Shown here: positions 15,982 through 47,989 of the stretch, one piece after another | Layout of the letters: every line of letters begins with the position of its first letter | Numbering within the stretch: position 1 is the first letter of the stretch | Assembly (NCBI GenBank): GCA_020057505.1 | Contig: JAGVFQ010000057.1 | Location: forward strand, 1-53,584 | Length of the DNA stretch: 53,584 nucleotides | Origin: Patescibacteria group bacterium | Lineage (GTDB): Bacteria > Patescibacteriota > Patescibacteriia > JAGVFQ01 | Direction: 5' to 3' | The notes under the pieces: generated by a model | What the model was told of the DNA's origin: nothing | Database searches by the model: none | The model's input: the letters and a program-made list of their open reading frames with translations, nothing else | Made by a program: the position numbers and the translations under genes

Positions 15982-16110
15982 GAATAAATTATACCATTTT
16001 TGCTCTTTTTATGATAGAATTGAGGTATTAAAACATATAGCCCACAACAATCTAAATAAATCAATAAGTGCTTCATACTGTGTGTTTTAAATTAATAATC
16101 TCTAATCTTC

Positions 16111-16170
16111 ATGAATCTATGCGAATCTATATTCGCGATAATTCGTGATAAAATTAGTACTAATTCGCGA
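16111..16170. repeat. cluster of GCGAAT/ATTCG(C/T) hexamers upstream of the HD gene
   Basis: GCGAATctatATTCGCgataATTCGTgata...ATTCGCg. Same hexamer family as 16841-16932 and 51111-51140. Confidence 0.6.
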
Positions 16171-16174
16171 TTCT

Positions 16175-16840: not shown

Positions 16841-16932
16841 ATACACGAATTTCCACGAATTATTTACGAATATACACGAATGCACAAATTCGCATATTCG
16901 TGCATATTCGTTTTCTATTCGTGCGTGATTCA
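16841..16932. repeat. array of four ACGAAT followed by four ATTCG(T/C), forming a long imperfect palindrome
   Basis: ACGAATttccACGAATtatttACGAATatacACGAATgcacaaATTCGCatATTCGTgcatATTCGTtttctATTCGT. Confidence 0.7.
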
Positions 16933-16942
16933 TTTAAGATTT

Positions 16943-17590: not shown

Positions 17591-17657
17591 AATTTAAAGA
17601 ATCAAAAAATAAAATCCTTTTCATCGCCGGTTTAATGTCAAAGCAATATTATAAAAA

Positions 17658-17688
17658 CAAAAAACAACGTCCTAAACGTTGTTTTTTA
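17658..17688. terminator. bidirectional rho-independent terminator between convergent genes
   Basis: AAAAAACAACGT-cctaa-ACGTTGTTTTTT. Confidence 0.75.
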
Positions 17689-17716
17689 AAAACCTTGAAC
17701 TTACAAACTTTAAAAC

Positions 17717-18334: not shown

Positions 18335-18392
18335 AATGAAAAAATAAATTAATTTAATCCTATGCAGGTTAATTATACTATAAATTTAAAGA

Positions 18393-18422
18393 TAAAAAAA
18401 GCGTTCTCAAAACTGAGAACGC
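18393..18422 (-). terminator. rho-independent terminator after the YvcK-like gene
   Basis: Minus strand: GCGTTCTC-agtttt-GAGAACGC followed by TTTTTTT. Confidence 0.7.
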
Positions 18423-18434
18423 TGTTCGGACCTC

Positions 18435-19382: not shown

Positions 19383-19385
19383 GAT

Positions 19386-19688
19386 CTACTCCTTTCTTTC
19401 CGCTCCGATGCCAATTCCTTGGCTCCGGAGATAAGCTTTGCGTTTTTCTGCCAACTCCCTGCCTTCTTCCACGGTCCAATCGCCTGGGTAGGCGAAGGCG
19501 CAATCGGGATTCCTCATGCAGCCGCAAACCCACATCATAACTTTCTCGCCATCAGGGAAGGTCACCTCACACAACTCAAGGTCGTCATCATGACCAAACC
19601 CCGTGCAGCACACCGAGCATTGTCTCTTGGACCCTTTCTTCTCGATAGATCCCAAGACAATATAAGTACCGTTACGTTCCGTTAACAT
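19386..19688 (-). CDS. small cysteine-rich protein (9 Cys), unknown function
   Basis: 100 aa from the ATG at 19688, with GGAGGA 7 nt upstream. Contains CSVCC ... C ... CGC ... C. Ends 3 nt before the YvcK-like start, so it is probably co-transcribed. Confidence 0.5.
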   Translation of the reverse strand: MLTERNGTYIVLGSIEKKGSKRQCSVCCTGFGHDDDLELCEVTFPDGEKVMMWVCGCMRNPDCAFAYPGDWTVEEGRELAEKRKAYLRSQGIGIGAERKE

Positions 19689-19747
19689 GGCTTTATCCTC
19701 CAAAATTGTTTAATTTGTCAAAAAACTTTCCTTTTATTTAATACTCT

Positions 19748-19776
19748 ATCTTAAACTAAATTTACAAAAAAGTCAA
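19748..19776 (-). promoter_or_regulatory. sigma70-like promoter (TTGACT - 17 nt - TAAGAT)
   Basis: The minus strand reads cTTGACTtttttgtaaatttagttTAAGAT, about 60 nt upstream of the Cys-rich ORF. Confidence 0.5.
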
Positions 19777-19941
19777 GAGCGGGTATAATAAAAAATATCT
19801 CCCCCCTCAAGGTATTAAGGACAAAAACAGGAGAACAAGCGAGAGCTTGCTGATTCAGTAAAATGCGCCAATTAAGAAAACAAGTTTTCGCTTGAACTCC
19901 TAATCTACCTTTTACTCCCTCCAAGGTAATCTTAAAAAATT

Positions 19942-21108
19942 ATGCTAAACCTATCAAATAAAAAAATTCTCGTCTTTACCGGCGGTGGGGTAGCTCCGGC
20001 TTTGAATCCAACTCTTTATGGCGTGATCACCGCCGCGAGAAAAGAAGGGGCTTATGTTTTGGGTGGACTTTACGGCTGGGCTTCGCTTTTGAAAAATGGC
20101 AAAATAATTAATCTTAATAATTTAAAAATTGATTCGCTCCAAGACGCCGGCGGTACTTTTTTGCGCTCTTCGAGAACCAATCCCCTTTCTCTCGCCGACG
20201 GGCTAGAACAAGTCAAAGAGAAAATTAAGGAATTAAACATAGATTCTATTGTCGCCATCGGCGGCAATGACACACTGACTGCCGCATATAAATTGGCCAA
20301 GGCGGGATTGCCGATTGTCAGCGTGCCCAAAACCATTGATAATGATTTGTCCGAAACCTACTTTACTCCCGGTTTTCCCTCGGCTGCCAATTATCTCGCG
20401 AACTTTACCAGGGAAATAAAAGAAGACGCCGCCTACGCGCTCTCAAGAATTTTCATTATTGAAGCTATGGGTATGGAAGCCGGCTGGCTCAGCCTATCAT
20501 CAATTTACGGCCACGCCGATGTCATCCTGCCGCCGGAATGGCAATTCAATTTTAACAATGTTTTAAAAACTATCAGTGAGCGCTACGAAAAAAATGGCAA
20601 TTATGCCGTTGTCGTCATTGCTCAAGAAGCGCACTTTGATGAAGCTATTGAAGCCAGAGCCGAAAATCAAATCGGTGAGCAATACGGCCATGTTCGAAAA
20701 AGTTTTATTTGTCTGTCATTGAAAGATAGAATTAAAAAAGAATTGGGCATTGATACGAAAGCCTTATACCCGGGCAATTTTCTTGAAACTGGAAAATCCT
20801 CGCCGTTGGATCGCGACTTGGCGATTAAGCTAGGACGAAAAGCTATTGAATTAATAAAAAAAGAACAATACGGTTTTATGGCGAATATTATCAGGCCGAA
20901 TAATCAAACAACAACTTTAAAAATTAACTCCATATCATTGGATAAAGTTATCGGCGAGGAAAATTATCGAAGACTGCCTGAAAATTATTTTGATAGAGAA
21001 AAATTTCTGCCTACCAAAAAATTCCTAGACTACATGGAACCGATTCTGGGTAAATACAAGCCAAAAGAAGATGAATATACAAAACTTATAAAAAAAATAA
21101 AGGGCTAA
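19942..21108 (+). CDS. pfkA: 6-phosphofructokinase (PfkA family, divergent; phosphoryl donor not assignable)
   Basis: 388 aa. LVFTGGGVAPALN, IGGNDTL and PKTIDNDL match the PfkA signatures. Confidence 0.8.
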   Translation: MLNLSNKKILVFTGGGVAPALNPTLYGVITAARKEGAYVLGGLYGWASLLKNGKIINLNNLKIDSLQDAGGTFLRSSRTNPLSLADGLEQVKEKIKELNIDSIVAIGGNDTLTAAYKLAKAGLPIVSVPKTIDNDLSETYFTPGFPSAANYLANFTREIKEDAAYALSRIFIIEAMGMEAGWLSLSSIYGHADVILPPEWQFNFNNVLKTISERYEKNGNYAVVVIAQEAHFDEAIEARAENQIGEQYGHVRKSFICLSLKDRIKKELGIDTKALYPGNFLETGKSSPLDRDLAIKLGRKAIELIKKEQYGFMANIIRPNNQTTTLKINSISLDKVIGEENYRRLPENYFDREKFLPTKKFLDYMEPILGKYKPKEDEYTKLIKKIKG

Positions 21109-34831: not shown

Positions 34832-35368
34832 TCATGAGGCGCTTAACGCTTTTAAAATATAATGATTTAATTTTTCTTGAAGTTTCTGATCTTTGATATT
34901 ATCTCGATATTTTAAATAATTTTTATAATATGGCCTGACTTCCGTCGTTAATAAGCGTGGTTTTAATGATTTTTTTGTAGTTTGGTGTAATTTCTTGAAC
35001 CATCTTGCCATTTGTACTATAAAATCATTAGTGGGATTATTTTCAGATGGATGCTTTCCCTCGATAAATTCTTCAACAAAATAATTATTAGAAATAATTT
35101 TATGTGAAGCGTCAAAAAATATTACTTTTGGCCATAATCCTGATTTTGCTATTTTCAAAAATTCAAATTCTTTCTTCAGATTTTTGAATTGCTGATTATC
35201 TTCAACTCTTATAGCATACTTATTTTTAGTGGTTTCCAAAAGATAATTAGAATTATGATTCCCTTTAGCCAGAAATGAGAATCTAATTAGATTCTCATTT
35301 AATTTCTTACAAATTTGTTCAACTTGATGTTTATTTAATTTTTCTTTGTTCATAAACCTATTTAACAT
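34832..35368 (-). CDS. APH/choline-kinase-fold phosphotransferase, N-lobe only (truncated; possible pseudogene or pseudokinase)
   Basis: 178 aa. LAKGNHNSNYLLETTKNKYAIRVE and FVEEFIEGK (hinge) are present. The catalytic HxDxxxxN loop and DxG are absent because the ORF ends early. Confidence 0.5.
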   Translation of the reverse strand: MLNRFMNKEKLNKHQVEQICKKLNENLIRFSFLAKGNHNSNYLLETTKNKYAIRVEDNQQFKNLKKEFEFLKIAKSGLWPKVIFFDASHKIISNNYFVEEFIEGKHPSENNPTNDFIVQMARWFKKLHQTTKKSLKPRLLTTEVRPYYKNYLKYRDNIKDQKLQEKLNHYILKALSAS

Positions 35369-35651
35369 AGTGAAATTTTTTGCCGCTTATATTTTCCAGA
35401 AGTTCAACGGTCGCCAAGACAGACGGATTGTCCGTCGGCAATAAAACAAGCCGATTACTTAATTGATCAAGCAGCGGAATTAAAAACTCATCGCCCCAAG
35501 ATGGGGAAAAGGTAATAACGTCGTCAAAATCTATTTCCAGATTTTCATTGCCGCCGAGTTCTCCAAGTGTCGATTGAAAAGCGGCTAGCGCTTCTTTGCC
35601 CGCCTGTCGGGAAACCAAGGTTGTTCCAAATTTTTTTAGTTCTATTTTCAT
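35358..35651 (-). CDS. STAS-like domain protein (DUF4325)
   Basis: 97 aa. LVSRQAGKEA ... IDFDDVITFSPSWGDEF pattern of DUF4325. Overlaps the downstream ORF by 11 nt. Confidence 0.6.
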   Translation of the reverse strand: MKIELKKFGTTLVSRQAGKEALAAFQSTLGELGGNENLEIDFDDVITFSPSWGDEFLIPLLDQLSNRLVLLPTDNPSVLATVELLENISGKKFHYVK

Positions 35652-35680: not shown

Positions 35681-36400
35681 TTAAAATCTAATAATTGCCA
35701 AACAGCCGCGAATATTTTCTCGAGCGCGCGTAATTCCAATGTCAGACTGCCCCTCCTCTAGTCGTAGCTCACCATCGCCGCTATTGAAAAACAATCTCAT
35801 TGAATTATCGGTGATGACTTTGCGGACAAATTTTAATCCGTTGCCGCGCTTTTCAGGATCGCGCCCGGAAATGATTTCAGTAAAAGCCATCTCTAGCGCG
35901 TCAAGATGATTTTTGAGTTCGGGCCGGACGCGACTAAGCGTCCCCAAAACTCCCAACCCTCGGTCGGCCAAGACCACCAGCCGCTTATAAAGATCATAGC
36001 CAAAAAATATTCCCGGCGCATCAGGCCATTTACCTAAATTATGATCAAAAGAATTATTTCCAATCTCTCCCGCCACCGCCACGATAAGAGAAACTAATCT
36101 AGAAAACTGCGGCAACTGAAGCAAGTCGTTCTGCAATTTGATAAGCCTGGCTTGAAAAACCGCACTATTAGAGCAATAAAATTCGGCTGGCAGTTCTTGG
36201 CCTTTTCTCGTCCATTCACAGGCAAGCCCAATAAGATCGCTCGCAAAAACTTCTAAATCTTTTTTGGCATAATACCGATGAACACCGCCAGCTTTTCTAA
36301 TCGCGACTAACTTTTCGCTCTTATCCCAGCGGCGCAAGGTGTCAATAGAAACCTCTAAAAATTTAGCGGCTTCGCTTATACTTAATAACTTTTCTTCCAT
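35681..36400 (-). CDS. MerR-type HTH fused to a GHKL (RsbW/histidine-kinase-like) ATPase domain
   Basis: 239 aa. N-terminal LSISEAAKFLEVSIDTLRRWDK. GHKL N-box EIGNNSFDHN, G1 DRGLGV, G2 GNGLKFV. Confidence 0.6.
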   Translation of the reverse strand: MEEKLLSISEAAKFLEVSIDTLRRWDKSEKLVAIRKAGGVHRYYAKKDLEVFASDLIGLACEWTRKGQELPAEFYCSNSAVFQARLIKLQNDLLQLPQFSRLVSLIVAVAGEIGNNSFDHNLGKWPDAPGIFFGYDLYKRLVVLADRGLGVLGTLSRVRPELKNHLDALEMAFTEIISGRDPEKRGNGLKFVRKVITDNSMRLFFNSGDGELRLEEGQSDIGITRARENIRGCLAIIRF

Positions 36401-36453: not shown

Positions 36454-36987
36454 ATGCAAAATTATATCAAACTAGGGAAAAATAAGTTAAAACTATTTAA
36501 CAAAGTCCAGACCATGCTCAACGGAAACTTTATACCGAAGACGGAAAGCAAGGAATTCGCCTTCACTAAGCTTATCAGGTGCGGCTACTGCGGATCAGGC
36601 ATATCAGCCGATGAAAAATTCAAAAAACTCAAAGATGGTGGCACGAATCGCCACGTCTATTACTTTTGCACTAAAGCTAGAAATATCGATTGCAGCAATT
36701 CCCCTATCAATGAGCCAAGTCTGATTAATGAACTAGCTGAGTTGATGGACAAAGTAAATTTGGACGAACTTGAAGTGCGAGACCGAATTGAAAATGAGAT
36801 CGCGAGATTTAATAAGTTCAGAGCCGGCGTGCTGGGCTACAAGCAAGAAAAGAAAGCGATTGATATAGATGTGAGGAATTATGCCAAATACTTACTCAAA
36901 GAAGGAACCATTATGGAGAAACGAGAATTATTATCATGTCTTCAGAGTAAGTTATTCTTGAAAGATAGAAAGATTACACTGGAGTAA
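36454..36987 (+). pseudogene. C-terminal fragment of a large serine recombinase (zinc-ribbon plus coiled-coil only)
   Basis: 177 aa. FTKLIRCGYCGSGISADEKF...HVYYFC is the recombinase zinc beta-ribbon. The resolvase catalytic domain and the recombinase domain are missing. Confidence 0.65.
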
Positions 36988-36990
36988 AAA

Positions 36991-37013
36991 AATCGCCGAG
37001 AAGATCGGCGATT
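36991..37013. terminator. bidirectional hairpin terminator
   Basis: AATCGCCGA-gaaga-TCGGCGATT flanked by an A-run and T residues. Confidence 0.65.
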
Positions 37014-37062
37014 TAGTGATGTGAATATAATTTTTAATTTTACGGGTTAGTTTTTTAAGTAA

Positions 37063-37362
37063 CTAATCGCCAATCAATCTTATATAGGTATGTTGTTCGA
37101 TTTGCTTCATAAATTCAATTATATCTTTTATTTCCGATTCTAGACTCTTGTTTAGCCTAGCAAGTTCTTCTAACTCATTTATAACGTGAGGAACCTGATA
37201 AAGATTGAACATTGTCAAACCATAAGGATCAATACTCCAAAGCCATGGAAATTTTTCTTTGCTATCGTTTGGTAATTCCTTAATAATTTCAGCTAAATTA
37301 ATTTCTATTTTTCTTATCAATCCCCCGCCCTCTCCCTCCAATCGAATTCCGATGTGTTGCAT
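37063..37362 (-). CDS. putative immunity protein for orphan toxin 4
   Basis: 99-aa ORF 26 nt downstream of the orphan Rhs-CT. Assigned by position only. Confidence 0.45.
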   Translation of the reverse strand: MQHIGIRLEGEGGGLIRKIEINLAEIIKELPNDSKEKFPWLWSIDPYGLTMFNLYQVPHVINELEELARLNKSLESEIKDIIEFMKQIEQHTYIRLIGD

Positions 37363-37388
37363 ATTGTTTTTAAATTAAATAATTATTT

Positions 37389-38765
37389 TCATGGAAATGT
37401 AGTAACTAAATCTCCTAACTTATTAGTTACAACTGTATAAATCGAAGTAAAAGATTGGGAATTTCGATCCCAACCAATTGCCTTACCAGCATCAATAGTC
37501 CTAATAAAATTTCCATTACTTTGTAAGGTCGTTGCCGCATTTTTAGCCTGCTCAAGCAAATTTGGTATATCTTTAAAATTCATAAAGAAACTCTTATTTT
37601 CTTGTAGAGTTATAGAACTATCCAAGGAATGGTACTTCTGAATGTGCAACATCCCTTTTGAAGTTATATTTATTATAGAATTTGCAGCTTTCTGAATTTT
37701 ATCTTCCTGAGTTGCAGCCACTGTACCTCCGGCAGTCGTTACGGTCGCAGCTGCACCGCCGCACAATATTCCACAAGTAATACTTCCGCCAGCTGCTACA
37801 ACGCCTCCAGCTACAAGCGCTCCTCCGACTACGCCCATTACCGCTCCAGTCTGGTATGGATGATCCATAGCATATCGAGCAACAGAGTTATTGTCATACA
37901 AATTATTAGCCCAATTACCAAGTTTAATCGTATTTCTTTCACTAATAATATATTCCACCCATTCACCATTAGAATCAATAGCTATCAGCGGATTATTCTT
38001 CACATAGCTATAGCTGTTTAAATTTTGCGGATCAGATAAATATTGCTGTAATTCTTGGTCGGTAATCTGCTTTATCTTATTTTTATCCCCCACCGCCAAA
38101 TACGCCGGATCCTCACTCACAAACCTGCCAATTTTCCCATTGTAATATCTCGCCCCGTAATAGTACAAATTCGTTTCCTCATCCAATTCCTTGCCAGTAT
38201 ATTTGTGGTTAGCTTCGTAGCTAGAAGTCTTCTCATCCAACCTCACCGAACCAAAAGGATAATAATCCAAGGATTCAACAATCTGTCCGGTTGTATTGGT
38301 TTCGATCGAGGAACTGCCGAGTTGATCAGAATGGTTGTAATAGATAGTACCATTTTTAATCGTGGCAATATTCGTATCGCCAAGATAGATGCGATCGCGG
38401 AAAATACCATTTTCTTTCTCGGTATATTGATTGGGATAATATGTTTTAATGGTTGAGCTAGCAGCGACTGCCTTTAAAATCCTCTGACCATTTTCATCGT
38501 AGGTATAATTCACTGACTTGCCTGTTTTAATCGATCTCAAAAGCTGATTCTTGTAATTCCAGGAATAATTAAAAATACTATCCGAAATTAGATTGCCTGA
38601 ATTGTCATAGCCAAAAACTTGCGCGCCAGCTTTAGTCACCGCATCAGGGTTGGCGTAAGTCGCGGCCCAAGTGAGAGAGCTGCTGCCATCATAAATATAT
38701 TTACCCACGTCAGATTTGTTTAAGATATTACCAAGAGCGTCGTAGGAATATGATTTCACTATCAA
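37389..38765 (-). CDS. orphan Rhs fragment: ~270 aa of C-terminal core plus unrelated toxin tip (CT4)
   Basis: Nearly collinear with aa ~1510-1780 of the full-length protein (SYDALGNILNKSDVGKY ... LYYYGARYYNGKIGRFVS ... NNPLIAIDSNGEW), then divergent. Starts with TTG 2 nt after the upstream stop, and there is no ATG. Confidence 0.85.
   Translation of the reverse strand: MIVKSYSYDALGNILNKSDVGKYIYDGSSSLTWAATYANPDAVTKAGAQVFGYDNSGNLISDSIFNYSWNYKNQLLRSIKTGKSVNYTYDENGQRILKAVAASSTIKTYYPNQYTEKENGIFRDRIYLGDTNIATIKNGTIYYNHSDQLGSSSIETNTTGQIVESLDYYPFGSVRLDEKTSSYEANHKYTGKELDEETNLYYYGARYYNGKIGRFVSEDPAYLAVGDKNKIKQITDQELQQYLSDPQNLNSYSYVKNNPLIAIDSNGEWVEYIISERNTIKLGNWANNLYDNNSVARYAMDHPYQTGAVMGVVGGALVAGGVVAAGGSITCGILCGGAAATVTTAGGTVAATQEDKIQKAANSIINITSKGMLHIQKYHSLDSSITLQENKSFFMNFKDIPNLLEQAKNAATTLQSNGNFIRTIDAGKAIGWDRNSQSFTSIYTVVTNKLGDLVTTFP
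38094..38335 (-). repeat. Rhs core-end homology block, copy in orphan 4
   Basis: Near-identical DNA to 42331-42570, 39811-40055 and 41158-41340. Homology to the main gene continues up to about 38750. Confidence 0.85.
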
Positions 38766-38767
38766 AA

Positions 38768-39136
38768 TTAAATATATTTTTCTGCTTCATTAAACGCCCA
38801 TAAGGCCTTACCTTTTAAAAGTTGCCGCGAAACTTCTATTGCCTTATATGACTCAGCCAAGGTTTCAAATATATCTATAATTATAAGATCTGTGGTATCT
38901 TTATCGTTTTTTTGTTCATTAAATTGTTCATTAAGGAATAAATAAAATTTTTGAATTACTTTATCATTGATTGGATAATTTTCAACTCTTTCTTTTAAAA
39001 ATCGGCCAAAAACACCCAACAACATTTTTTTTTCACTAACATCTGTAATATCAAACACGTTATAGTCCCCGTATTGCTTAAATTCTGGTATCAGCTTAAC
39101 TATTTCATCAATAATATTATCTAAAGTTATTTTCAT
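38768..39136 (-). CDS. putative immunity protein for orphan toxin 3
   Basis: 122 aa. Its start overlaps the stop of the upstream toxin ORF by 4 nt. Confidence 0.5.
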   Translation of the reverse strand: MKITLDNIIDEIVKLIPEFKQYGDYNVFDITDVSEKKMLLGVFGRFLKERVENYPINDKVIQKFYLFLNEQFNEQKNDKDTTDLIIIDIFETLAESYKAIEVSRQLLKGKALWAFNEAEKYI

Positions 39137-40176
39137 TTAATAGCACCTCCCTTCAAAGCATCTTTAATACTATCTGCCAACCATTCAGCTTTTTGTCTGT
39201 CATTATTAGACAAACTATTTTTCAATAATTTGTTTAAACCATTAGAAATTTCTTTAATTTTTATTGCATGATCAGTTCCACCAACTAATTCACCAGTTTT
39301 TGCTGTATACTTAAATGCATCTATAGCTCCACCATCACCAATAATATTTCCAGATTTATGTTGTTTAAAAAGATCCTTTATATAATTAATCAATTTGGGA
39401 TTCTCAACTCCTTGCAATAAATTATCTCTTCTAGTTCCTAATAATTTCGATGCCGATGCTCCAACGCCTTTTGTTAATTTTTCTGCATCACCTGCCTTAT
39501 CAGCAACTCTTGCAACTCTCGCCACAGCGCCCAATCCGACTACGCCGGGGATAGCCGCGCTTCCAACATCTAGACCCAGACTAGCTGCTTCGCCTTTTGT
39601 GTCTCCTCCAGTAAAAATAGATTGCCCTAATTTGTATAAATCATATCCAATAAATCCCGCATCTACAACAATATCAAACCACTTTCCTTTTTCATCGACA
39701 TATTTTAGCGGATTATTAATCGTATATGAATACGAATTAAGGTTTTGGGAATTTTGGAGATATTTATCTAATCTTAATCCTGTTTCTTCTTCAAGTCTTT
39801 TATTATCCCCCACCGCCAAATACGCCGGATCCTCGCTCACAAACCTTCCAATCTTTCCATTGTAGTATCTCGCTCCATAATAATACAAATTCGTTTCCTC
39901 ATCCAATTCCTTACTGGTATATTTATGATTATCCTCATAACTTGAAGTCTTCTCATCCAATCTCACTGATCCAAAGGGATAATAATCCAAGGACTCAACA
40001 ATCTGCCCGGCTGCGTTGGTTTCAATTGAGGAACTGCCGAGCTGATCAGCGTGGTTGAATATAGTACTATTTATACTGTTAATAGCGAAGACAGAAGAAA
40101 AAGGAGAAAATAAAAATAATAAAAACAGTAATAGAGCTACTGCTTTTATGAAAAAGGTTTTAGTGGGCAGAATCAT
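39133..40176 (-). CDS. orphan Rhs core-end plus toxin tip (CT3) with its own ATG and signal-peptide-like N-terminus
   Basis: MILPTKTFFIKAVALLLFLLFLFSPFSSVFA is joined directly to HADQLGSSSIETNAAGQIVESLDYYPFG ... NNPLKYVDEKGKW, followed by a unique 190-aa tip. Confidence 0.8.
   Translation of the reverse strand: MILPTKTFFIKAVALLLFLLFLFSPFSSVFAINSINSTIFNHADQLGSSSIETNAAGQIVESLDYYPFGSVRLDEKTSSYEDNHKYTSKELDEETNLYYYGARYYNGKIGRFVSEDPAYLAVGDNKRLEEETGLRLDKYLQNSQNLNSYSYTINNPLKYVDEKGKWFDIVVDAGFIGYDLYKLGQSIFTGGDTKGEAASLGLDVGSAAIPGVVGLGAVARVARVADKAGDAEKLTKGVGASASKLLGTRRDNLLQGVENPKLINYIKDLFKQHKSGNIIGDGGAIDAFKYTAKTGELVGGTDHAIKIKEISNGLNKLLKNSLSNNDRQKAEWLADSIKDALKGGAIK
39811..40055 (-). repeat. Rhs core-end homology block, copy in orphan 3
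   Basis: See 38094-38335. Confidence 0.85.
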
Positions 40177-40186
40177 TTTACAACAG

Positions 40187-40462
40187 TTAACGATATTCTT
40201 CGGGAATATTTTTAAGTTGCTCTTCTAGAGACCAATTTTCGGTTTTATATTCTGGGTCATGCCACTTAGCTCCTGATTCTATCCATTTTTTACGCCAACT
40301 TTTAACACCTTCTAATGTTGCGTCGCCATACCCAAATTCAACTCCGCAACAAAAACAAAAATCATAGGTTGGCGATTCTCCATCTTCTCCCCATGGAAAA
40401 TACTCTTCTGAATATAATCCACATACTCTACAAATTTTTAATTTATTTTTTGAGTTGTTCAT
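40187..40462 (-). CDS. putative immunity protein for orphan toxin 2 (Cys-rich, CPCC-like)
   Basis: 91 aa. CRVCG ... CFCCGVEFGYGD. Overlaps the toxin ORF's 3' end by 20 nt. Confidence 0.5.
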   Translation of the reverse strand: MNNSKNKLKICRVCGLYSEEYFPWGEDGESPTYDFCFCCGVEFGYGDATLEGVKSWRKKWIESGAKWHDPEYKTENWSLEEQLKNIPEEYR

Positions 40463-41306
40463 AATAATATTCTAAATTAGTTTTATAACCATGTATAGAT
40501 GGATCCGGTTTGAACATTGTTTTAGGAACTTCATTTTTATCCATTATACCTAATATGTTATTTTTTACATCATAGATTAGCTTATCACCATTTTTCCTAA
40601 AACCACTTAACACATCTGCGGAATAATTTTTAAAGAAATTATAGGTGCCTTCAACATATTCTTTAGCGTTTCTAAACTGAGAAAAATCACTTTTATGATT
40701 ATTCCAATGCTCGAAAGCATTTTTAATTGAATCCCCATACCGCCCTAAACTCCATATTGGTTTGGAAGCATCCCTAACCGAATCTCCAATTTTAACTATT
40801 TTCCCTGCTGGTGGTATTTCACCCGCGGTAACTACTCCGATTGCCGCCATGCCATAATTATTATTTTGCGCGTCTTGTCCGGCTTGCACTAAGCTATACT
40901 GTCCGATAGGGGTAGTAAGAGACTGAAAGAAGGAATTAATTTGTGGGGTATATATTGCAAAGGTTATAAATACTACAGCTGCTACTGCTTGCAGAAAATT
41001 CCCATCGGGATCGCGGTATAATAATGGGTTATTTCTTGCGTATATATAATAATTCAATAATTGTGGATCAAGTAATAACTGTCGTAATTCAAGTTTAGTC
41101 AACTCTCTAAGTTTGGTACTATCCCCTATCGCAAGAGATGTTGGATCTTGTGATATAAACCTGCCAATCTTCCCATTGTAATATCTCGCTCCATAATAAT
41201 ACAAATTCGTTTCCTCATCTAATTCCTTACCCGTATACTTATGGTTATCCTCATAACCTGAAGTCTTCTCATCCAATCTCACTGATCCAAAGGGATAATA
41301 ATCCAA
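40443..41306 (-). CDS. orphan Rhs core-end plus toxin tip (CT2)
   Basis: DYYPFGSVRLDEKTSGYEDNHKYTGKELDEETNLYYYGARYYNGKIGRFIS ... NNPLLYRDPDGNF. Has a TTG start. Homology to the main gene extends upstream to the stop of the preceding immunity ORF (41338-41340). Confidence 0.8.
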   Translation of the reverse strand: MDYYPFGSVRLDEKTSGYEDNHKYTGKELDEETNLYYYGARYYNGKIGRFISQDPTSLAIGDSTKLRELTKLELRQLLLDPQLLNYYIYARNNPLLYRDPDGNFLQAVAAVVFITFAIYTPQINSFFQSLTTPIGQYSLVQAGQDAQNNNYGMAAIGVVTAGEIPPAGKIVKIGDSVRDASKPIWSLGRYGDSIKNAFEHWNNHKSDFSQFRNAKEYVEGTYNFFKNYSADVLSGFRKNGDKLIYDVKNNILGIMDKNEVPKTMFKPDPSIHGYKTNLEYYYEQLKK

Positions 41307-41340
41307 AGATTCGACGATCTGCCCGGTCGCGTTGGTTTCA
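41158..41340 (-). repeat. Rhs core-end homology block, copy in orphan 2
   Basis: See 38094-38335. Confidence 0.85.
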
Positions 41341-41658
41341 ATTATGAAACTTTTCTAGTCTATCTATTAATAATTTTACATCTTCTCTATCAATATTATC
41401 ATACAAAGCCTCTAAATCTATATTCTCGAAATAAAGCAATTCCAGGGCGTTAATAATAATTCCTAAATCATTTAGATCGATCTCTCGATTATTTTTTTCC
41501 AATTTATCATCAACATTTTTATACTCTAGAGAAGAGTATAATATTTTAATTTTATCTGGCCTATATGGATAACCCCAAGCATCGATTAGGCTTCTTCTAA
41601 TAATATAACTTTCATCTTTTGACAATCCCTTAATATAATCATCTTTCAATTCAATCAT
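41338..41658 (-). CDS. putative cognate immunity protein of the full-length Rhs toxin
   Basis: 106 aa. Its start overlaps the rhs stop by 4 nt. Confidence 0.55.
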   Translation of the reverse strand: MIELKDDYIKGLSKDESYIIRRSLIDAWGYPYRPDKIKILYSSLEYKNVDDKLEKNNREIDLNDLGIIINALELLYFENIDLEALYDNIDREDVKLLIDRLEKFHN

Positions 41659-44600
41659 TTTAATACACCCCCTCTCTCAATATCCTTTTTTATTGATTCA
41701 TCTAAATAATTTATGCCTTTATCTGGCTGAAATATTGTTGGTTGTTTTGGATTATCAATAAATAAATCATTGGTTTTTGAGTTATAGTAATATGTTTTAG
41801 AAACTTTTCCGCCAATTTCAATTTTTATATCCGCATTAACTCTAGTTTGTTTTACTAAATCTTCGAGTTGAGATTTTGATAAATTAGGATAATGTTTTTG
41901 AGCATGTTCAACTGCTCTTAAATCATTATTTTTATTAAATTTAGTCTTCGACATCAGCATTTCCCCCGTCGACATCGTCGCGCCAGCTACTCCAGCCTCA
42001 ATCCCCATCACCCCAACCGCTAAATCATTCATATCATTGCCGGTTTTGTAATCGCCTTTTGAATATGAATAAACTGATCCGCCCATTAATGGTGCGCTAA
42101 TAGCCAGAGTTGCGGCTGCAGAAAAAGTAACCACGGCCGGCACCCACACTGGCGCATAAACCGCGACATAAACAGCAATTGGAATTAAAAAAGCAAAATT
42201 ACCAGTCTTGTCTATATAGATTAATGGATTGTTCGTGGCGTACGAATAACTATTTTGCGCCTGAGGATTTGAAAGATAGGTTTTTAAATCCAAACCAGTC
42301 TTGCTCTTTAATTGGCCTGCATTTCCTACCGCCGAATACGCCGGATCAACACTCACAAACCTGCCAATCTTCCCATTGTAATACCTCGCCCCGTAATAAT
42401 ACAAATTCGTCTCTTCATCCAATTCCTTGCCCGTGTATTTGTGGTTATCTTCGTAAGTTGAAGTCTTCTCGTCTAATCTCACTGATCCAAAAGGATAATA
42501 ATCCAAAGATTCGACAATCTGTCCGGCTGCGTTGGTTTCAATTGAGGAACTGCCAAGCTGATCGGAATGGCTGTAATAGATGACATTGTTTTTAATCGTG
42601 GCAATATTTGTATCGCCAAGATAGATTCGATCGCGGGAAATACCATTTTCTTTTTCGGTATATTGATTGGGATAATACGTTTTAATAGTTGAACCAACAG
42701 TGACTGATTTTAAAATCCTCTGACCATTTTCATCATAAGCGTAGCTCACTGCCTTACCTATTTTATTTGAACTCAAAAGCTCGTTCTTGTAATTCCAAGA
42801 GTAATTAAAGATACCATCTGAAATTAGATTGCCCGAATTGTCATAGCCAAAGACTTGCGCGCCAGCTTTAGTCACTGCATCAGGATTGGTATAAGTTGCA
42901 GCCCAAGTCGCCGAGCTGCTGCCGTCATAAACATATTTACCCACGTCGGACTTGTTTAAAATATTACCCAAAGCATCGTAACTGTAGGCTTGCGTGTAGT
43001 TTTTGCCGTTCGCCGCAAAGGTGATAGTCGCCTTAGTCAAACGATAAAGATCATCGTAAGTATAATCTGCTTCTTTGGCGAGATTCCCGGCCGACTTGTC
43101 GGAGATATGCGTGACATTGCCGACAGCGTCATAAGTATAGGTAAGATCTTGAATTTTTACGCTGTTTGCTCCAGTAGATTTGTTAATGAGTCGATACATC
43201 TGATTGCGGTCATAAATATTCGTGGTAATGGCGCCATTCCCCATTTCAATCCTCTTGATTTGGCCATTGACCTCATAATCAACTGACTTCAAAATATCAA
43301 CGTTGGTAACCGGGTTCGCAATCTTTTCAATCTGGCCGGCATTATTCAAAACATATTTGATTTGGGAATTATCGGGATATTTGATTGAAACTAGATTATT
43401 TAAGCTGTCGTAGGAATAGGTTGTGGTGAAAGTCTGGCCGTAGCTTAAAGGACTGGACACGGACTTATCAGTCTTGAAGACTTCTTTTAACTTTCGGCCG
43501 GCGATGTCATAGGTATAGTTCTTTTCATAGGTGGAGTTTGAAGCCTTAGTTAATCGCCCGATGCCATTAATACCGGCATCATAAACATAGGTCAGTTGTC
43601 TAGTTAAAGTATTATCCGCGTTCACAATATTCTCTGAAGTCAGCCGATCGAGAACATCGTAAGTGTATCTGACTTTGAGACCGCGAGGATCAATTGTCTG
43701 TGTTAGATTATTATTCTTGTCGTAGCTCTTAGTTCCGACGCCGAAAGTCAGATCCGCTGGATTGTGCAGATCCTCTTCTCTGGTTTTCCGACCGAGGAGA
43801 TCGTAAGAGAACTTGCGGATATTGCCTCGGGCATCAGTAATCTTAGTGAGATAGTTTAATTGGTTGTAAATATATGCTGTGTTTTTCGCCACGCCAGCCA
43901 AGAATTCCGTCACTTTGATGAGATTGTTTCTCGCATCGAAGTAGAAAATCTTTTGTTTGGCATTGGGATCAGTGATCGTCTTATTCCACTGATCATAACT
44001 AAAGCTTGTGCTGCCTAAACTATTTGATATTTTGGTCACGCGTCCGAGCGCATCATAAGCATAAGTATTATTAGGGTCATTTTGATCAATTGATTCAAAA
44101 TCAAGCGTTAAAGAAAACTCGGGCAGGAATTCTTTAGCTAAAAATCCACGCTCATTGTAGCTTAGATTGTTGGCGACAAAGAGTCCATTCTCGGCTTTGG
44201 CTTTAGTTTGAATCGTTCGACCCAGACCGTCAACATATGTTTTCTTGGTGATTTCAATCAACTGACCGTTGTTGTCATTTTGATTAGGGTAAAATTTTTC
44301 CGTAACGCTCGTAGGAAAATTAATATCATTGTATTCATATCTTTTGGTTTCAATCAATTGGGCAGTATTGCTTGGATTGGTGATTAATTCTTTAACCGGC
44401 CGATTGAGAGCATCATAGACTTTTTGAGTTTTAAAATTGTTGGGATCAATTATCTCTATTGGTTCGCCCGTGAAGTAATCGTAAGTAGAAGTTGTGATTT
44501 GATTTTTAGGGTTCACGATTTGGGCGGGATAGAGATTGTAGGCATCGTAGCTAACGCTCGTTTTAAACCCGCGCGGATTGGTAGAGCTTATGGGCAAGCC

Positions 44601-47537
44601 AAAGCTATTATACTCAGTCCGGCTGTAGGTAAAATCAGCATTGGGATTAATTAATTTCTTTTCGAGAGTTAAATTGCCTTTTTCTACAAGACCCCAATTC
44701 AAGGTGTCATAATAATACTCGCTTTGGCCAAGGACATTACCGCCTTGGCCGTAGCTCGTCTGTCTTTTGGGCAGAGTGAGAATATTTTTGTTTGAGTTTA
44801 AGGCGTATTCGATGTTAGTGCTGATTTTGTCCGTGCCCGTATCAGCGAAACTGCCATCATCATTGGCCGCTACCTCGCCATATTGAGCTTCGCTCGTAAC
44901 ATTGCCGTTCGCGTCGTCATAGACTGTAAGCGAAGCCTTATCTCTATGATCAGCGTTGCCATCATAGGCCATTTCAATGGTTTGGGTTTGTTTTACAAAA
45001 TCTCGGAAGCCGGGCAAGGCGGCGTCTTCCCATTTGTTAATATTAACTTGATACAATTTATCTAAAGCATCATATAATTCTTGGCGATAGACTTTATTGA
45101 CTTTGGAAATATGATCGCTCGTTTCGCCTTTGGCGGTGTCGCTACTATTGCCTTGATAATAATAGCTGATAGTCTTATTGCCGTCGCTGTCAGTCTCTGT
45201 GATAGTATGGAAACCCGTGAATTGTCGATCTAAATAGCCTAGAGAATAATATTCGCCCCCGGCATATTCATAGTTTAGAATAGAGAGATTATTAAAACCA
45301 TCATTAGTTTCGATTTTCTTTACGGTTTGTAAATTAAAAGGCAGTTTGGGATTTAGGATATTACTTGAGGCATCGAAATAATTAGCCGAACTCTGATAGT
45401 TGATTTTAGTTTTAGCGCCCAGGCGGTCATCAACTTCATTCATTAGATCCGGGACAATGCCTTGGTGAAGATAGACTTCGTTGCGGCCCTGGTAGCTGTT
45501 GGAGTACAAGACATCAAAAAGACCATCGCCGTTGATATCTTCAATCGCGGCGCCGTAGTTAATGCCATTTTGCGTGAGATAATTAACGGGAATTATCCAG
45601 GCCGGATCAAGAGTCCAGCCCAAGCCGGTATTAATGTAGACGCCATTGTATTGCAGATCGCTTGAAGCGTCTTTGCGCAGGAGATCAATGAGACCATCGC
45701 CATTCGCATCGGCAAACATCACGCCGGTATCATTGGCATTGCCGTTCGTAAATTTAAGCGGGATGGTCCAATTTGGGTCTTCGCTAAAACCATGGCCGGT
45801 ATTGAGATAGACTTTGTTGGGTGAGGTATTTTTAGCCGAGAGAATATCAATTAGACCGTCGTTATTCACATCCGCTAATCTCGCGCCCAGGTCGGCTGAG
45901 GAACCGATGAAATATATCGGGATAATCCAGCTAAAATCTTTAAACCAGCCCGTGCCGGTATTGATATAGACTTCTTTCCTCTGCCAGTATTCATTGGCGA
46001 AGACGATATCAATCCGGCCGTCACCGTTCAGATCAGTTAATCGCGCGCCGTAATTAATGCCATTTTGAGTGAGATCAATCGGCAGATTCCAATTCGGATC
46101 TTTGGCCCAGCCAGAACCAGTATTAATGTAGACGCCGTTAAACTGCGTATCATTTGAAGCGTCCTTACGCAGGAGGTCAACTAAACCGTCGCCGTTCACG
46201 TCGGCGAACATCACGCCGTTGTCATTGGCGTTGGCGTTCGCAAATTTCACGGGAATGTACCAATTTGGATCTTCCTTAAAACCGTTGCCGGTGTTTAGAT
46301 ATACTTTATTGGGAAAGGAATAATATGCCAAGAGAACGTCGGGCAGGCTATCGCCGTTCACATCAATCATTCTTGAACCCGTATCATGAGAACTTGAAGT
46401 GCCAAAAGAGGCCGGCAAGCTGAGACTCGCGTCTTTCACCCATTGTTTGCTTGATGGCGCGTAGCTGAATTTTGTCTCAGGGAGAGTAATAACGTTGTTA
46501 GAACTGTCTTGGCCTGATTCAGTGATTGACTGAAGCACTAATCGATTTGTATTAGTGCCGGAAGAATAGGCCAAGCTGTATTTTTTCGACCATTGGCCAT
46601 TAATTTTGACCACGATTTCTTTGATACGATAATTAGTTTCTGTTTTGAAGCCGGAGTTGTAGGAAACATTTTTGTCATTTCTAGCTTCGGACGTAAACTC
46701 TATTTCGAAAATTCCAGAGATAGCGCCATTGCCGGTGTAATATATCTTTTGCGGGTAGATCTGACCCGCATCTTTTATATATTCAAATTTAATCCAGTTG
46801 TCATTAAGATCTCGCATTTCTTCAAGCTGCCACTTATATATTCGATTGCTATCGACTGGATCATCTTGACGAGAATTGGCGGTGAGACCGAATTTGTATT
46901 GTGTACCCTTTTTGTCGGTCACGAGCCAGGAGTTGTCGTTCTGGAATTCATATTTTAAAAATTCGCCGTTATCAACTTTGGAACCGTAGAGGCCGTGGAT
47001 ATCATCGCTCAAACTGATTGATTTTAATTCACCGCTTAAAGAAGAAGTAAAATAGTTTTCGGTGTAGAGTTTGTCGCTGCCCAGTTTGTTTTGTCTTTCA
47101 ATCGAGGGAATACTCACTGACCAGCCGTAACCGAAAATATTGTCATTGTTTTTGGTTTGGCTATTGTAGGTTAAACTTAAAACCGGCCCGAAAGAATTAC
47201 GGCCGGCTGGAATTGAAATGGGATAATTGTAATTAAGAGCGCCGCTCATCTTGTCAGCTTCGATCTTGATTCCAGACTTAGTAGAATTTACATCTTGATC
47301 CGTCTGGCTAGGCGTTGGCGAAGCTGAGGCGGCGGCTTCGGGCGTGGCGCTCGCAGCGGGAGCGACGGCATTTTCATCAGTTGAGACGGCCACGGTTTCA
47401 GCTGTTGCCGTTATGGATTCAGTCGGGACGTTCGCGGTTTCCGCGGCGTAAATTACAGAAGGTAAAATTAACTCAAAAGAAAGAGAGAATATGAGGAGGA
47501 GAATTACTACTTGATTCAATTTTGGTTTCTTGACCAT
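41655..47537 (-). CDS. Rhs/YD-repeat polymorphic toxin with a TcB-like N-terminal half (SpvB-like motif plus FG-GAP propeller) and a C-terminal toxin tip (CT1)
   Basis: 1960 aa with a Sec-type signal peptide. SpvB/TcB motif SGALNYNYPISIPAGRNSFGPVLSLTYNS ... FGYGWSVSIPSIER. Six DxNGDGxxD FG-GAP/VCBS repeats. Many YD repeats (YDALGR, YDLLGR, YDVLDR). Core end is LYYYGARYYNGKIGRFVSVDP ... NNPLIYIDKTGNF, followed by a 179-aa unique tip. Confidence 0.95.
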   Translation of the reverse strand: MVKKPKLNQVVILLLIFSLSFELILPSVIYAAETANVPTESITATAETVAVSTDENAVAPAASATPEAAASASPTPSQTDQDVNSTKSGIKIEADKMSGALNYNYPISIPAGRNSFGPVLSLTYNSQTKNNDNIFGYGWSVSIPSIERQNKLGSDKLYTENYFTSSLSGELKSISLSDDIHGLYGSKVDNGEFLKYEFQNDNSWLVTDKKGTQYKFGLTANSRQDDPVDSNRIYKWQLEEMRDLNDNWIKFEYIKDAGQIYPQKIYYTGNGAISGIFEIEFTSEARNDKNVSYNSGFKTETNYRIKEIVVKINGQWSKKYSLAYSSGTNTNRLVLQSITESGQDSSNNVITLPETKFSYAPSSKQWVKDASLSLPASFGTSSSHDTGSRMIDVNGDSLPDVLLAYYSFPNKVYLNTGNGFKEDPNWYIPVKFANANANDNGVMFADVNGDGLVDLLRKDASNDTQFNGVYINTGSGWAKDPNWNLPIDLTQNGINYGARLTDLNGDGRIDIVFANEYWQRKEVYINTGTGWFKDFSWIIPIYFIGSSADLGARLADVNNDGLIDILSAKNTSPNKVYLNTGHGFSEDPNWTIPLKFTNGNANDTGVMFADANGDGLIDLLRKDASSDLQYNGVYINTGLGWTLDPAWIIPVNYLTQNGINYGAAIEDINGDGLFDVLYSNSYQGRNEVYLHQGIVPDLMNEVDDRLGAKTKINYQSSANYFDASSNILNPKLPFNLQTVKKIETNDGFNNLSILNYEYAGGEYYSLGYLDRQFTGFHTITETDSDGNKTISYYYQGNSSDTAKGETSDHISKVNKVYRQELYDALDKLYQVNINKWEDAALPGFRDFVKQTQTIEMAYDGNADHRDKASLTVYDDANGNVTSEAQYGEVAANDDGSFADTGTDKISTNIEYALNSNKNILTLPKRQTSYGQGGNVLGQSEYYYDTLNWGLVEKGNLTLEKKLINPNADFTYSRTEYNSFGLPISSTNPRGFKTSVSYDAYNLYPAQIVNPKNQITTSTYDYFTGEPIEIIDPNNFKTQKVYDALNRPVKELITNPSNTAQLIETKRYEYNDINFPTSVTEKFYPNQNDNNGQLIEITKKTYVDGLGRTIQTKAKAENGLFVANNLSYNERGFLAKEFLPEFSLTLDFESIDQNDPNNTYAYDALGRVTKISNSLGSTSFSYDQWNKTITDPNAKQKIFYFDARNNLIKVTEFLAGVAKNTAYIYNQLNYLTKITDARGNIRKFSYDLLGRKTREEDLHNPADLTFGVGTKSYDKNNNLTQTIDPRGLKVRYTYDVLDRLTSENIVNADNTLTRQLTYVYDAGINGIGRLTKASNSTYEKNYTYDIAGRKLKEVFKTDKSVSSPLSYGQTFTTTYSYDSLNNLVSIKYPDNSQIKYVLNNAGQIEKIANPVTNVDILKSVDYEVNGQIKRIEMGNGAITTNIYDRNQMYRLINKSTGANSVKIQDLTYTYDAVGNVTHISDKSAGNLAKEADYTYDDLYRLTKATITFAANGKNYTQAYSYDALGNILNKSDVGKYVYDGSSSATWAATYTNPDAVTKAGAQVFGYDNSGNLISDGIFNYSWNYKNELLSSNKIGKAVSYAYDENGQRILKSVTVGSTIKTYYPNQYTEKENGISRDRIYLGDTNIATIKNNVIYYSHSDQLGSSSIETNAAGQIVESLDYYPFGSVRLDEKTSTYEDNHKYTGKELDEETNLYYYGARYYNGKIGRFVSVDPAYSAVGNAGQLKSKTGLDLKTYLSNPQAQNSYSYATNNPLIYIDKTGNFAFLIPIAVYVAVYAPVWVPAVVTFSAAATLAISAPLMGGSVYSYSKGDYKTGNDMNDLAVGVMGIEAGVAGATMSTGEMLMSKTKFNKNNDLRAVEHAQKHYPNLSKSQLEDLVKQTRVNADIKIEIGGKVSKTYYYNSKTNDLFIDNPKQPTIFQPDKGINYLDESIKKDIERGGVLK
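42331..42570 (-). repeat. Rhs core-end homology block, master copy in the full-length gene
   Basis: See 38094-38335. Confidence 0.85.
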
Positions 47538-47565: not shown

Positions 47566-47607
47566 ATTTTAATTCAAAATTGGATGCGACGCAAATATAT
47601 GCGACGC
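47566..47607 (-). promoter_or_regulatory. candidate rhs promoter (TTGCGT - 17 nt - TAAAAT) overlapped by two direct GCGTCGCAT 9-mers
   Basis: The minus strand reads GCGTCGCATatatttGCGTCGCATccaattttgaatTAAAAT. The second 9-mer overlaps the -35 box. Confidence 0.4.
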
Positions 47608-47616
47608 GTCCTAGAC

Positions 47617-47903
47617 ACCTGACTTAGCATAGGATACCTGCGGGACTTCGACTCGAACGCGTCCCGGTCGCCCTAGAGCCGTTCGAGTCCAGGACACGCG
47701 AAGCATCATGGACTCGAACTTTTTGCCAAAAATAGTCGGGGCGTCTCGGTCACCTGACTTAGCATAGGATACCTGCGAGACTTCGACTCGAACGCGTCCT
47801 GGTCGCCCTAGAGCCGTTCGAGTCCATGACACGCGAAGCATCATGGACTCGAACTTTTTGCCAAAAATAGTCGGGGTGTCTCGGTCACCTGACTTAGCAT
47901 AAG
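47617..47903. repeat. 135-bp tandem repeat, 2 full units plus a 17-bp partial unit abutting tRNA-Gln
   Basis: Units 47617-47751 and 47752-47886 differ at 4 positions. The third unit start (ACCTGACTTAGCATA) is the 3' flank of tRNA-Gln. Confidence 0.9.
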
Positions 47904-47907
47904 CCTA

Positions 47908-47978
47908 CTGCCAGACCTGGATTCGAACCAGGATAGTCGCCTTCAAAGGGCGATGTCCTACCGTTAGACGATCTGGCA
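47908..47978 (-). tRNA. tRNA-Gln (anticodon UUG)
   Basis: Hand-folded cloverleaf. Acceptor UGCCAGA/UCUGGCA with the U1-A72 pair typical of bacterial tRNA-Gln. D stem GUCU/GGAC. Anticodon arm UCGCC-CUUUGAA-GGCGA. T arm CCUGG-UUCGAAU-CCAGG. No encoded CCA. Confidence 0.9.
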
Positions 47979-47989
47979 ATACAAAACGA

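Follow-up and report, generated by a model that had tools for sequence, protein, structure and literature searches.

A Patescibacteria Rhs/YD toxin locus with three orphan tip and immunity modules, probably built by C-terminal displacement

Bacteria of the candidate phyla radiation (CPR) are tiny, mostly uncultured epibionts, and the ways in which they fight or exploit their neighbours are poorly known. WapA of Bacillus subtilis is reportedly a Sec-exported, wall-associated YD/Rhs toxin of a monoderm (Koskiniemi et al. in 2013), and the model of C-terminal displacement is said to go back to Jackson et al. in 2009. Enterobacterial rhs loci consist of main and orphan genes, as in Salmonella Typhimurium LT2 (STM0291/STM0292), E. 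coli and Dickeya (PMC4436062; PMC3967940), and both the orphan concept and the recombination model are by now textbook knowledge (PMC4436062; PMC3967940). In the Salmonella case of activation by recombination, the shared tract is 95% identical over 522 bp (PMC3967940). In CPR, an Rhs-type toxin with an immunity gene had already been noted in 2018, in Saccharibacteria (PMC6031116). In the limited literature covered, which is not proof of novelty, we found no paper on CPR orphan arrays or on short CPR Rhs tips with leaders. Here we describe an rhs locus with three orphan modules on contig JAGVFQ010000057.1 of a Patescibacteria group bacterium (assembly GCA_020057505.1).

The whole stretch of DNA analysed, the window, comprises 53.6 kb, and the main rhs gene and the array behind it all lie on the minus strand between 37 and 47.6 kb (Table 1). 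With a probability of about three in four, we read it as a chromosomal Rhs/YD polymorphic-toxin locus of Patescibacteria that would have been built by successive C-terminal displacement. According to the list of open reading frames (ORFs), an ORF of 1960 amino acids (aa) is followed by the small ORF I1 and then, in one orientation, by three units of a tip-encoding gene (orphans 2, 3 and 4) and a small ORF (I2, I3 and I4). Across the locus there are four distinct tips, CT1 to CT4, and four unrelated small ORFs. Genes within the array are spaced by 0–26 nucleotides (nt). The main gene and I1 overlap by 4 nt, as do orphan 3 and I3; orphan 2 and I2 overlap by 20 nt, and a gap of 26 nt separates orphan 4 from I4, couplings which the original prediction had given and which the ORF list confirms.

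A repeat search revealed one four-copy direct-repeat family with copies at 38089, 39809, 41125 and 42325. In a MAFFT alignment the first part of each downstream unit aligns with the 3' end of the main core, and beyond it all similarity is lost. In four of four copies the Rhs-associated core domain TIGR03696 is complete (positions 1–75 of 76), with expect values (E) of about 1e-18 to 1e-19. NNPLxYxDxxG(F/W), a local variant of the motif PxxxxDPxGL, closes every copy, and identity collapses right after it; in the main gene the core domain ends in NNPLIYIDKTGNF, the equivalent of that motif. The core fragment of orphan 4 is the longest and includes a YD repeat. The boundaries of the local alignments fall close to the homology coordinates predicted before, and the homology of orphan 2 does set in at the stop codon of I1, as had been claimed, with weak matching about 12 nt into I1. 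It had also been correctly seen that an in-frame ATG is missing before the tips of orphans 2 and 4, which have TTG only. The description of the copies as near-identical did not hold, since they are 86.6–87.7% identical to the main gene. Among themselves they show 84–91% identity, and their longest exact matches to the main gene measure 20–32 nt. Over 64 shared codons, 18–21 synonymous stand against 2–4 non-synonymous codon differences; omega is 0.06–0.09 and synonymous divergence (dS) 0.66–0.87 between core copies. Because the differences are mostly synonymous and dS is of this size, the substitution pattern is that of long independent evolution without recent homogenisation.

The first possible start of orphan 2 is the TTG at 41306, at a position which is Leu in the main gene. 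In the homologous protein P0281 (retrieved proteins carry P and retrieved loci L numbers) an initial Met occupies this place. We considered this Met as a sign of a real start of orphan 2 and rejected it, since it belongs to the normal core sequence of that lineage and the codon in the window is TTG.

Past the motif the tip falls into two parts, a hydrophobic or glycine-rich linker of 82–98 aa and a toxin domain of 91–98 aa. None of the four tips and four small ORFs has a match in Pfam or NCBIfam, even at E up to 10. The CT1 and CT2 toxin domains belong to the same family, and a profile made of both and their homologues matches PDB 8EY4_A (E 1.2e-14), profile positions 3–82 lying on chain residues 7–87 of 88. 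8EY4 is the contact-dependent inhibition (CDI) toxin-immunity complex of E. coli O32:H37. Close homologues of the CT1 toxin occur on P0259, P0047 and one ORF of L036, and orphan 2 shares 67% aa identity over its full length with P0281, which belongs to the array L038. CT3 is a four-helix toxin domain in the AlphaFold2 (AF2) model, with a predicted local distance difference test score (pLDDT) of 85. It has no Pfam model and gave no match in the PDB sequence search or with Foldseek on the AF2 model. Its family nevertheless comprises 2175 clusters at E<=1e-3 in a 50% representative library, is C-terminal in all of them, and is also found on proteins of 2.0–2.5 kaa with SpvB, FG-GAP and RHS parts, built like the main gene. 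The orphan 4 linker is glycine-zipper-like and the CT4 toxin is modelled with an AF2 pLDDT of 87. A PDB sequence search with CT4 returned nothing meaningful; in Foldseek its fold weakly matches colicin D tRNase, 8EY4 and MafB2-CT (E 0.08–0.5, TM score 0.37–0.45), and a BECR-type RNase is only a lead from this model.

Linkers and toxins are combined in various ways. The linker of CT1 has no homologue among the retrieved proteins except itself. The orphan 3 linker is present on more than 20 proteins with other toxins: linker 3 occurs with toxin 1 (P0259), with toxin 3 (P0258, P0260, P0263) and with HNH, DUF2380 (Pfam; AHH-motif-like, P0008) or EndoU domains. Linker 4 occurs with toxin 3 (P0002, P0003) and with Tox-REase-7; neither of the linker modules 3 and 4 has a Pfam model. 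Among the retrieved homologues, linkers and toxins thus recombine freely, and the tips are, judged by these combinations, bipartite as in CdiA-CTs.

The small ORFs behave as partners of the tips, as the original prediction of toxin/immunity modules had it, and the linkage is conserved on unrelated contigs. Homologues of I1 lie directly after CT1-type toxin domains in L037 (53% identity, E 7e-39) and L036 (63%, E 1e-43), and a weaker one is present in L035. An I2 homologue in L038 (62%, E 7e-45) follows P0281 with the identical 20-nt overlap, and a second one in L038 (40%) follows another toxin of the same family. The I4 homologue L033_102 (30%, E 1e-15) comes directly after the CT4-type toxin P0007 (L033 and L034). 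L031_137, 26% identical to I3 over 120 aa (E 9e-9), comes directly after the CT3-type toxin P0003. L031_137 matches DUF7674 (PF24722) with a score of 28.0 at a cut-off of 27; I3 itself has no Pfam match and is probably a divergent DUF7674 protein. P0003 consists of linker 4 and toxin 3 and is followed by an I3-type gene, so the small ORF tracks the toxin domain and not the linker. As homologues of the small ORFs follow homologues of the matching toxins on unrelated contigs, these data support the reading of the small ORFs as putative cognate immunity partners.

Evidence for displacement comes from a sister genome, which was found by exact-protein look-ups on a contig of 187,685 bp (JGI 3300038466; locus L030). 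Between the window and L030 the FtsE proteins are the same, and DNA identity is 94% for FtsE and 90% for FtsX. The gene order is that of the window: SurA-like, DPBB, FtsE, FtsX, tRNA-Gln, rhs, serine recombinase. No orphan modules follow the 1977-aa rhs of L030. Its product is 85% identical to the main protein of the window up to the core end, where the variable core end, the cleavage motif and the linker are those of orphan 4 (87–98% nt identity). The dS between the orphan 4 tip and L030 is 0.23, compared to 0.19 for FtsE and 0.34 for FtsX; omega of the tip is 0.27. Past ...DKIQKA the toxin domain of L030 differs from CT4. Behind the L030 rhs lie a new 87-aa ORF with a weak DUF1871 match, an I4 homologue (101 aa, 62–64% identity), a DUF7674 gene (133 aa) and a DUF2283 ORF (17850–19135). 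The I4 homologue and the DUF7674 gene have no matching toxin and are an example of stranded immunity-type genes. The L030 recombinase (19212–20543) is intact with 443 aa, and its 3' part is 92% nt identical to the truncated recombinase at the same position of the window.

Because the full-length rhs of L030 carries the orphan 4 tip, at a dS on the level of the genomic background, the simplest reading of the sequences is that the full-length gene formerly ended in the orphan 4 tip, which was then displaced. The comparison shows tip exchange at two junctions, core/linker and linker/toxin. Recombinant junctions between the main core and another tip had been proposed as a check of the original prediction. 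L030 is such a form, a main core joined to CT4 in so far as a full-length rhs bears the core end and linker of orphan 4, but it is an evolutionary relative and not a population variant. No population recombinant was found in the collections searched, where a population of close relatives is absent. The only other assembly, the independent Logan assembly SRR6489360 (L001), matches window 39961–40885 over 925 nt at 100%, spanning the junction of orphan 2, I2 and orphan 3. Where the main gene and orphan 4 differ, the L030 core end agrees blockwise now with the one and now with the other (runs of 11 and 7 sites), which is weak evidence for past conversion among the copies (runs test by hand, p about 0.02–0.03).

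The shells of the sister genes (41655–47537 and L030 11911–17844) are more diverged from each other than FtsE/FtsX: dS is 0.68 over the first 1500 codons and 0.84 at the core end, against 0.19–0.34 for FtsE/FtsX. The shell may therefore have recombined with other alleles or evolved faster.

The main protein is composed of a Sec-type leader, SpvB (Pfam E 1.5e-16), an FG-GAP/VCBS propeller (FG-GAP_3, 1.7e-26), TcdB_toxin_midN (4.3e-15), RHS/YD repeats (RHS_repeat PF05593 in four stretches, E 5e-38; TIGR01643, E 9.5e-23), the core-end domain and CT1, in this order. The N-terminus MVKKPKLNQVVILLLIFSLSFELILPSVIYA (about 47445–47537) resembles a Sec signal peptide. The protein has no PAAR or VgrG domain, and no genes of a type VI secretion system (T6SS) are found among the neighbours. 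Since the host belongs to the CPR and a PAAR domain is absent, delivery by a T6SS is disfavoured, and Sec export is the likelier route. No wall-binding domains were detected in the main protein, and no TcA-like gene was seen among the ORFs examined in the window. A duplication of 277 nt (45596–45872 and 46088–46364, 74% identity) lies inside the FG-GAP propeller region of the main gene.

Orphan 3 differs from the other two orphans in that it begins with an ATG and a canonical signal peptide, MILPTKTFFIKAVALLLFLLFLFSPFSSVFA. The leader consensus M..LNK.L..K.V.LLL.LLFLFSPL...FA recurs in P0261, P0006, P0049, P0259 and every module of L038. These homologues share 35–51% peptide identity with the orphan 3 leader, while the main gene's own leader shares 24%. 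Leader DNA is 78% identical over 56–59 nt to window 40100–40161, and L038 1452–2672 aligns with window 41305–40093 at 71%, so the block of orphan 2, I2 and leader is conserved. Such leader N-termini are carried by 30 of the 209 short core-end proteins in the match lists. Two further loci, L040/L041, contain three dispersed leader-bearing Rhs-tip genes of 355–373 aa (4052–18081; Patescibacteria contig, 126–207 kb), whose N-terminal stretches of about 100 aa are near-identical and whose tips are different. A small multi-transmembrane ORF follows each of them, and up to a distance of 10 kb there is no full-length rhs. We also considered that the leader of orphan 3 might be a chance product of T-rich DNA, and rejected this because homologous leaders are found in other proteins. 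With its ATG and conserved Sec leader, orphan 3 is most likely translated and exported by itself and not silent; most other orphans in related arrays have no start, as orphans 2 and 4.

Tentatively, and with more doubt than confidence, we propose that these genes form an undescribed class of leader-bearing "mini-Rhs" toxins of CPR and possibly DPANN, which would be self-sufficient, secreted and shell-less. They may be built of a Sec leader, the last ~100 aa of the Rhs core as a self-cleaving plug, a hydrophobic linker and the toxin. If this is true, the present array and L038 would be multi-toxin batteries of which a part is active, and recombination would have a second handle in the conserved leader DNA beside the core end. 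Should the short form work, some tips could be delivered without the Rhs shell.

L038 (JGI 3300076124, 7120 bp) includes two dead-end leader-only ORFs of 50 and 59 aa; it holds close homologues of orphan 2 and I2, and toxins of the CT1/CT2 family with I1-like and I2-like partners. In L042 (4721–11143), from a metagenome-assembled genome of a Diapherotrites archaeon (GCA_040755695.1), an Rhs shell ORF of 1758 aa is followed 3 nt on by a separate ORF of 380 aa, which brings a signal peptide, a core end and a tip of its own. The pair could represent an Rhs split in two, in a DPANN archaeon.

Taken together, the locus could have arisen and could work as follows. A common ancestor would have carried the orphan 4 tip and I4 on the full-length gene. 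In the lineage of the window, newer tip/immunity modules would then have been inserted at the core end, pushing orphan 4 downstream, whereas in the lineage of L030 the toxin domain alone would have been replaced at the linker/toxin junction, stranding I4. The main protein would be exported by Sec, enclose the tip and cleave itself at PxxxxDxxG, and the hydrophobic linker would help an RNase-type toxin to enter a neighbouring cell. The hairpin at 36990–37014 is the sole strong same-strand terminator-like one from the rhs start to the end of the array. As it stands after I4 and the gaps between genes are 0–26 nt, the simplest inference is a single transcript that reads through the array to this hairpin, which would make the cell immune to all four toxins. 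Orphan 3 would be translated and exported separately. Orphans 2 and 4 would be stored tips without starts, which may rejoin the shell only by rare recombination across tracts of about 87% identity.

Several points weigh against this interpretation. The direction of the orphan 4 event is inferred from one sister genome, and in the alternative the L030 gene would have taken up orphan 4-like DNA by recombination. Fold matches are weak for CT4, and for CT3 there are none. That the hydrophobic linkers act in membrane entry or insertion is guessed from their composition alone. The promoter and terminator scans yield consensus matches only, and the calls of signal peptides rest on sequence features and conservation and not on a dedicated predictor. 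Finally, the toxin ORFs of orphans 2 and 4 may be decaying relics.

The original prediction had seen in the three units silent cassettes primed for activation by recombination. Three silent spares kept for present-day switching with the main gene, as in Salmonella, seem to us rather unlikely. The same-orientation homology tracts are rightly placed, orphans 2 and 4 have no starts, tip types have changed places between full-length genes and orphans, and the block mosaicism of the L030 core end (runs of 11 and 7 sites) hints at past conversion. What stands of the prediction is an rhs main gene with three orphan-type tip/immunity modules in a CPR genome, the start-less state of two units and tip exchange in the course of evolution. 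However, the tracts of about 87% identity with exact stretches of <=32 nt compare poorly to 95% over 522 bp in Salmonella, their differences are mostly synonymous at a dS of 0.66–0.87, and a simple crossover would delete the immunity genes in between. As the tracts are too diverged, no recombinant was seen (the only other assembly being identical) and one cassette, orphan 3, has its own leader as export signal, "primed" for switching is not supported as a current function and is unproven. The orphan toxins could instead be decaying, with selection on the small immunity genes alone, directed against toxins of neighbours or ancestors. L030, which retains an I4 homologue and a DUF7674 (I3-family) gene without matching toxin, indicates that immunity genes outlast toxins, and the missing start codons of orphans 2 and 4 and the one operon terminator would agree with relics. 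We consider this unlikely, since the toxin ORFs of all three orphans are uninterrupted over 287–458 codons in DNA of about 35% GC, the omega of 0.27 for the orphan 4 tip is relaxed yet not neutral, and the leader of orphan 3 is intact and conserved.

Quite improbable is an array in which all three units are independent short secreted toxins, translation of orphans 2 and 4 starting at TTG or being coupled to the immunity ORF before them. These two have neither leader nor ATG, and without a leader there is no Sec export; most orphans in related arrays are start-less as well, even though leader-bearing short Rhs-tip genes recur in CPR, some of them stand-alone, and each unit of the array has a complete core-end domain. 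An assembly artefact, in which reads from the rhs tips of different strains had been collapsed or chained, might be suspected in a metagenome contig with strain-variable rhs tips, but is hardly credible: the copies differ by 12–16%, beyond what confuses an assembler, the stretch from orphan 2 to orphan 3 is reproduced exactly by an independent assembly, the block of orphan 2, I2 and leader is contiguous in L038 too, and similar arrays are found on many contigs. Displacement of successive tips remains our preferred reading of the locus.

Concerning the distribution of such loci, a scan of genome contigs with the core-end alignment gave just one distant Oscillatoria locus, and a scan of metagenome contigs with the core-end profile gave 27 loci, none above 53% aa identity. 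At least 12 of these 27 hold two to five tandem core-end copies. Among them are full-length genes with orphans behind them, in L004, L005/L006, L019 and others. Core-end identity within those arrays spans 50–94%, so the ~87% found here is ordinary. The original prediction had found a four-deep arsenal notable for a CPR-like genome; with multi-module arrays in at least 12 of the 27 related loci, it is no exception in this setting. The assignment to CPR itself is borne out by RlmN, whose closest named relatives are all Patescibacteria, Parcubacteria, Falkowbacteria or Buchananbacteria (61–66% identity). The locus indicates that CPR bacteria use the same modular toxin logic as bacteria with large genomes. 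The window and L030 form a clean natural before/after pair for tip displacement, with immunity genes left behind. The locus also points to unannotated families, namely the CT3 domain (>2000 clusters) and two linker modules.

The array is flanked by tRNA-Gln (47907–47979) on one side and the truncated serine recombinase on the other. GC content is 0.32–0.365 in the tip regions compared to about 0.41 elsewhere. The rest of the window is of housekeeping character (PolX, RtcB, RarA, PFK, RlmN, YvcK, FtsEX and a SurA-like protein), and DPBB, recombinase and MacB/HlyD genes are also found near rhs. Integration of an island at tRNA-Gln was considered and rejected, as the 3' end of the tRNA is not repeated at the far side and L030 and the window have the same flanks. 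The 135-nt tandem repeat at 47592–47928 consists of two full units and one partial unit, each with a perfect 17-bp hairpin (RNA fold z-score -6.6); L030 has just one partial copy. In an Rfam scan of 36.9–48.2 kb only the tRNA matched and the repeat was without a family. It could be a leader or regulatory element of rhs. A 77-aa ORF over the repeat (47611–47844) is probably spurious. Beyond the recombinase remnant, which is the C-terminal third of the gene, lie a MerR/HTH_17 gene (35681–36400) and two APH fragments (34832–35651).

Table 1. Positions of the features of the rhs locus in the window
Feature	Positions	Strand	Evidence or remarks
Full-length rhs main gene	41655–47537	-	1960-aa ORF, Pfam/TIGR domains
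Rhs-associated core domain of main gene	42201–42500	-	aa 1680–1779, TIGR03696 E 7.5e-18
CT1 linker, 82 aa, hydrophobic, predicted membrane-active	41949–42194	-	sequence
CT1 toxin domain, 97 aa, CdiA-CT(8EY4)-like	41658–41948	-	profile match
I1, 106 aa, putative immunity protein for CT1	41338–41658	-	ATGA overlap with main gene
Orphan 2	40443–41354	-	homology 41157–41351, linker 40740–40994, toxin 40446–40739
I2, 91 aa, putative immunity protein for CT2	40187–40462	-	CxxC...CxxC zinc-ribbon-like motifs
Orphan 3, 347 aa	39133–40176	-	leader 40084–40176, homology 39809–40047, linker 39424–39678, toxin 39136–39423
I3, 122 aa, putative immunity protein for CT3	38768–39136	-	overlaps orphan 3 by 4 nt
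Orphan 4, 458 aa	37389–38765	-	homology 38089–38744, linker 37665–37958, toxin 37392–37664
I4, 99 aa, putative immunity protein for CT4	37063–37362	-	26 nt past orphan 4
Homology of orphan 2 to main gene	41157–41351		195 nt, 87.7%; local alignment
Homology of orphan 3 to main gene	39809–40047		239 nt, 87.4%; local alignment
Homology of orphan 4 to main gene	38089–38744 vs 42325–42980		656 nt, 86.6%; local alignment
Intrinsic-terminator-like hairpin, 10-bp stem and T run	36990–37014	-	consensus scan
Upstream boundary: 135-nt tandem repeats with strong hairpins	47592–47928	-	between tRNA-Gln and rhs start
Downstream boundary: truncated large serine recombinase, Zn-ribbon part only	36454–36987	+	Pfam Zn_ribbon_recom 4.7e-8

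In its domain architecture the main protein resembles TcB-TcC of the ABC toxins, with SpvB, FG-GAP propeller, TcdB_toxin_midN and RHS shell in one chain and a core-end autoprotease region followed by a hypervariable C-terminal tip. It differs from TcB-TcC in that no TcA-like gene was seen among the ORFs examined in the 53.6 kb and that the tips come with immunity genes, which argues for an antibacterial rather than an insecticidal use. From CdiA the locus is set apart by its carrier, an Rhs shell instead of a CdiA filament, by the motif PxxxxDxxG instead of VENN, and by linker families that have no Pfam model and a putative function. The CT1/CT2 toxin domains are nonetheless homologous to the CdiA-CT of E. 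coli O32:H37 (8EY4; E 1.2e-14), and the bipartite tips, whose N-terminal part is shuffled independently of the toxin, and the downstream orphan modules are features shared with CdiA-CTs.

Like WapA, the main protein is an Rhs/YD protein with a signal peptide in a cell without T6SS, with a C-terminal nuclease-type toxin and a downstream immunity gene. In contrast to WapA, wall-binding domains were not detected here, the N-terminal domains are SpvB/FG-GAP/TcdB-mid, and orphan arrays and leader-bearing short forms are present. Compared to the enterobacterial rhs loci, the host belongs to the CPR, export apparently relies on a Sec leader and not on T6SS/PAAR/VgrG, and the N-terminal region is made of SpvB/FG-GAP/TcdB-mid. 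The homology tracts are about 87% identical, where LT2 has 95% over 522 bp. A leader of its own is present in one module, and the two-part tips offer a second exchange junction. The general plan is that of enterobacterial rhs: a full-length rhs is followed by modules in the same orientation, which open with a piece of the core 3' end and go on with a tip that differs from module to module and a closely coupled immunity gene; the tip region is of lower GC, and evidence points to a downstream shift of tips with time.

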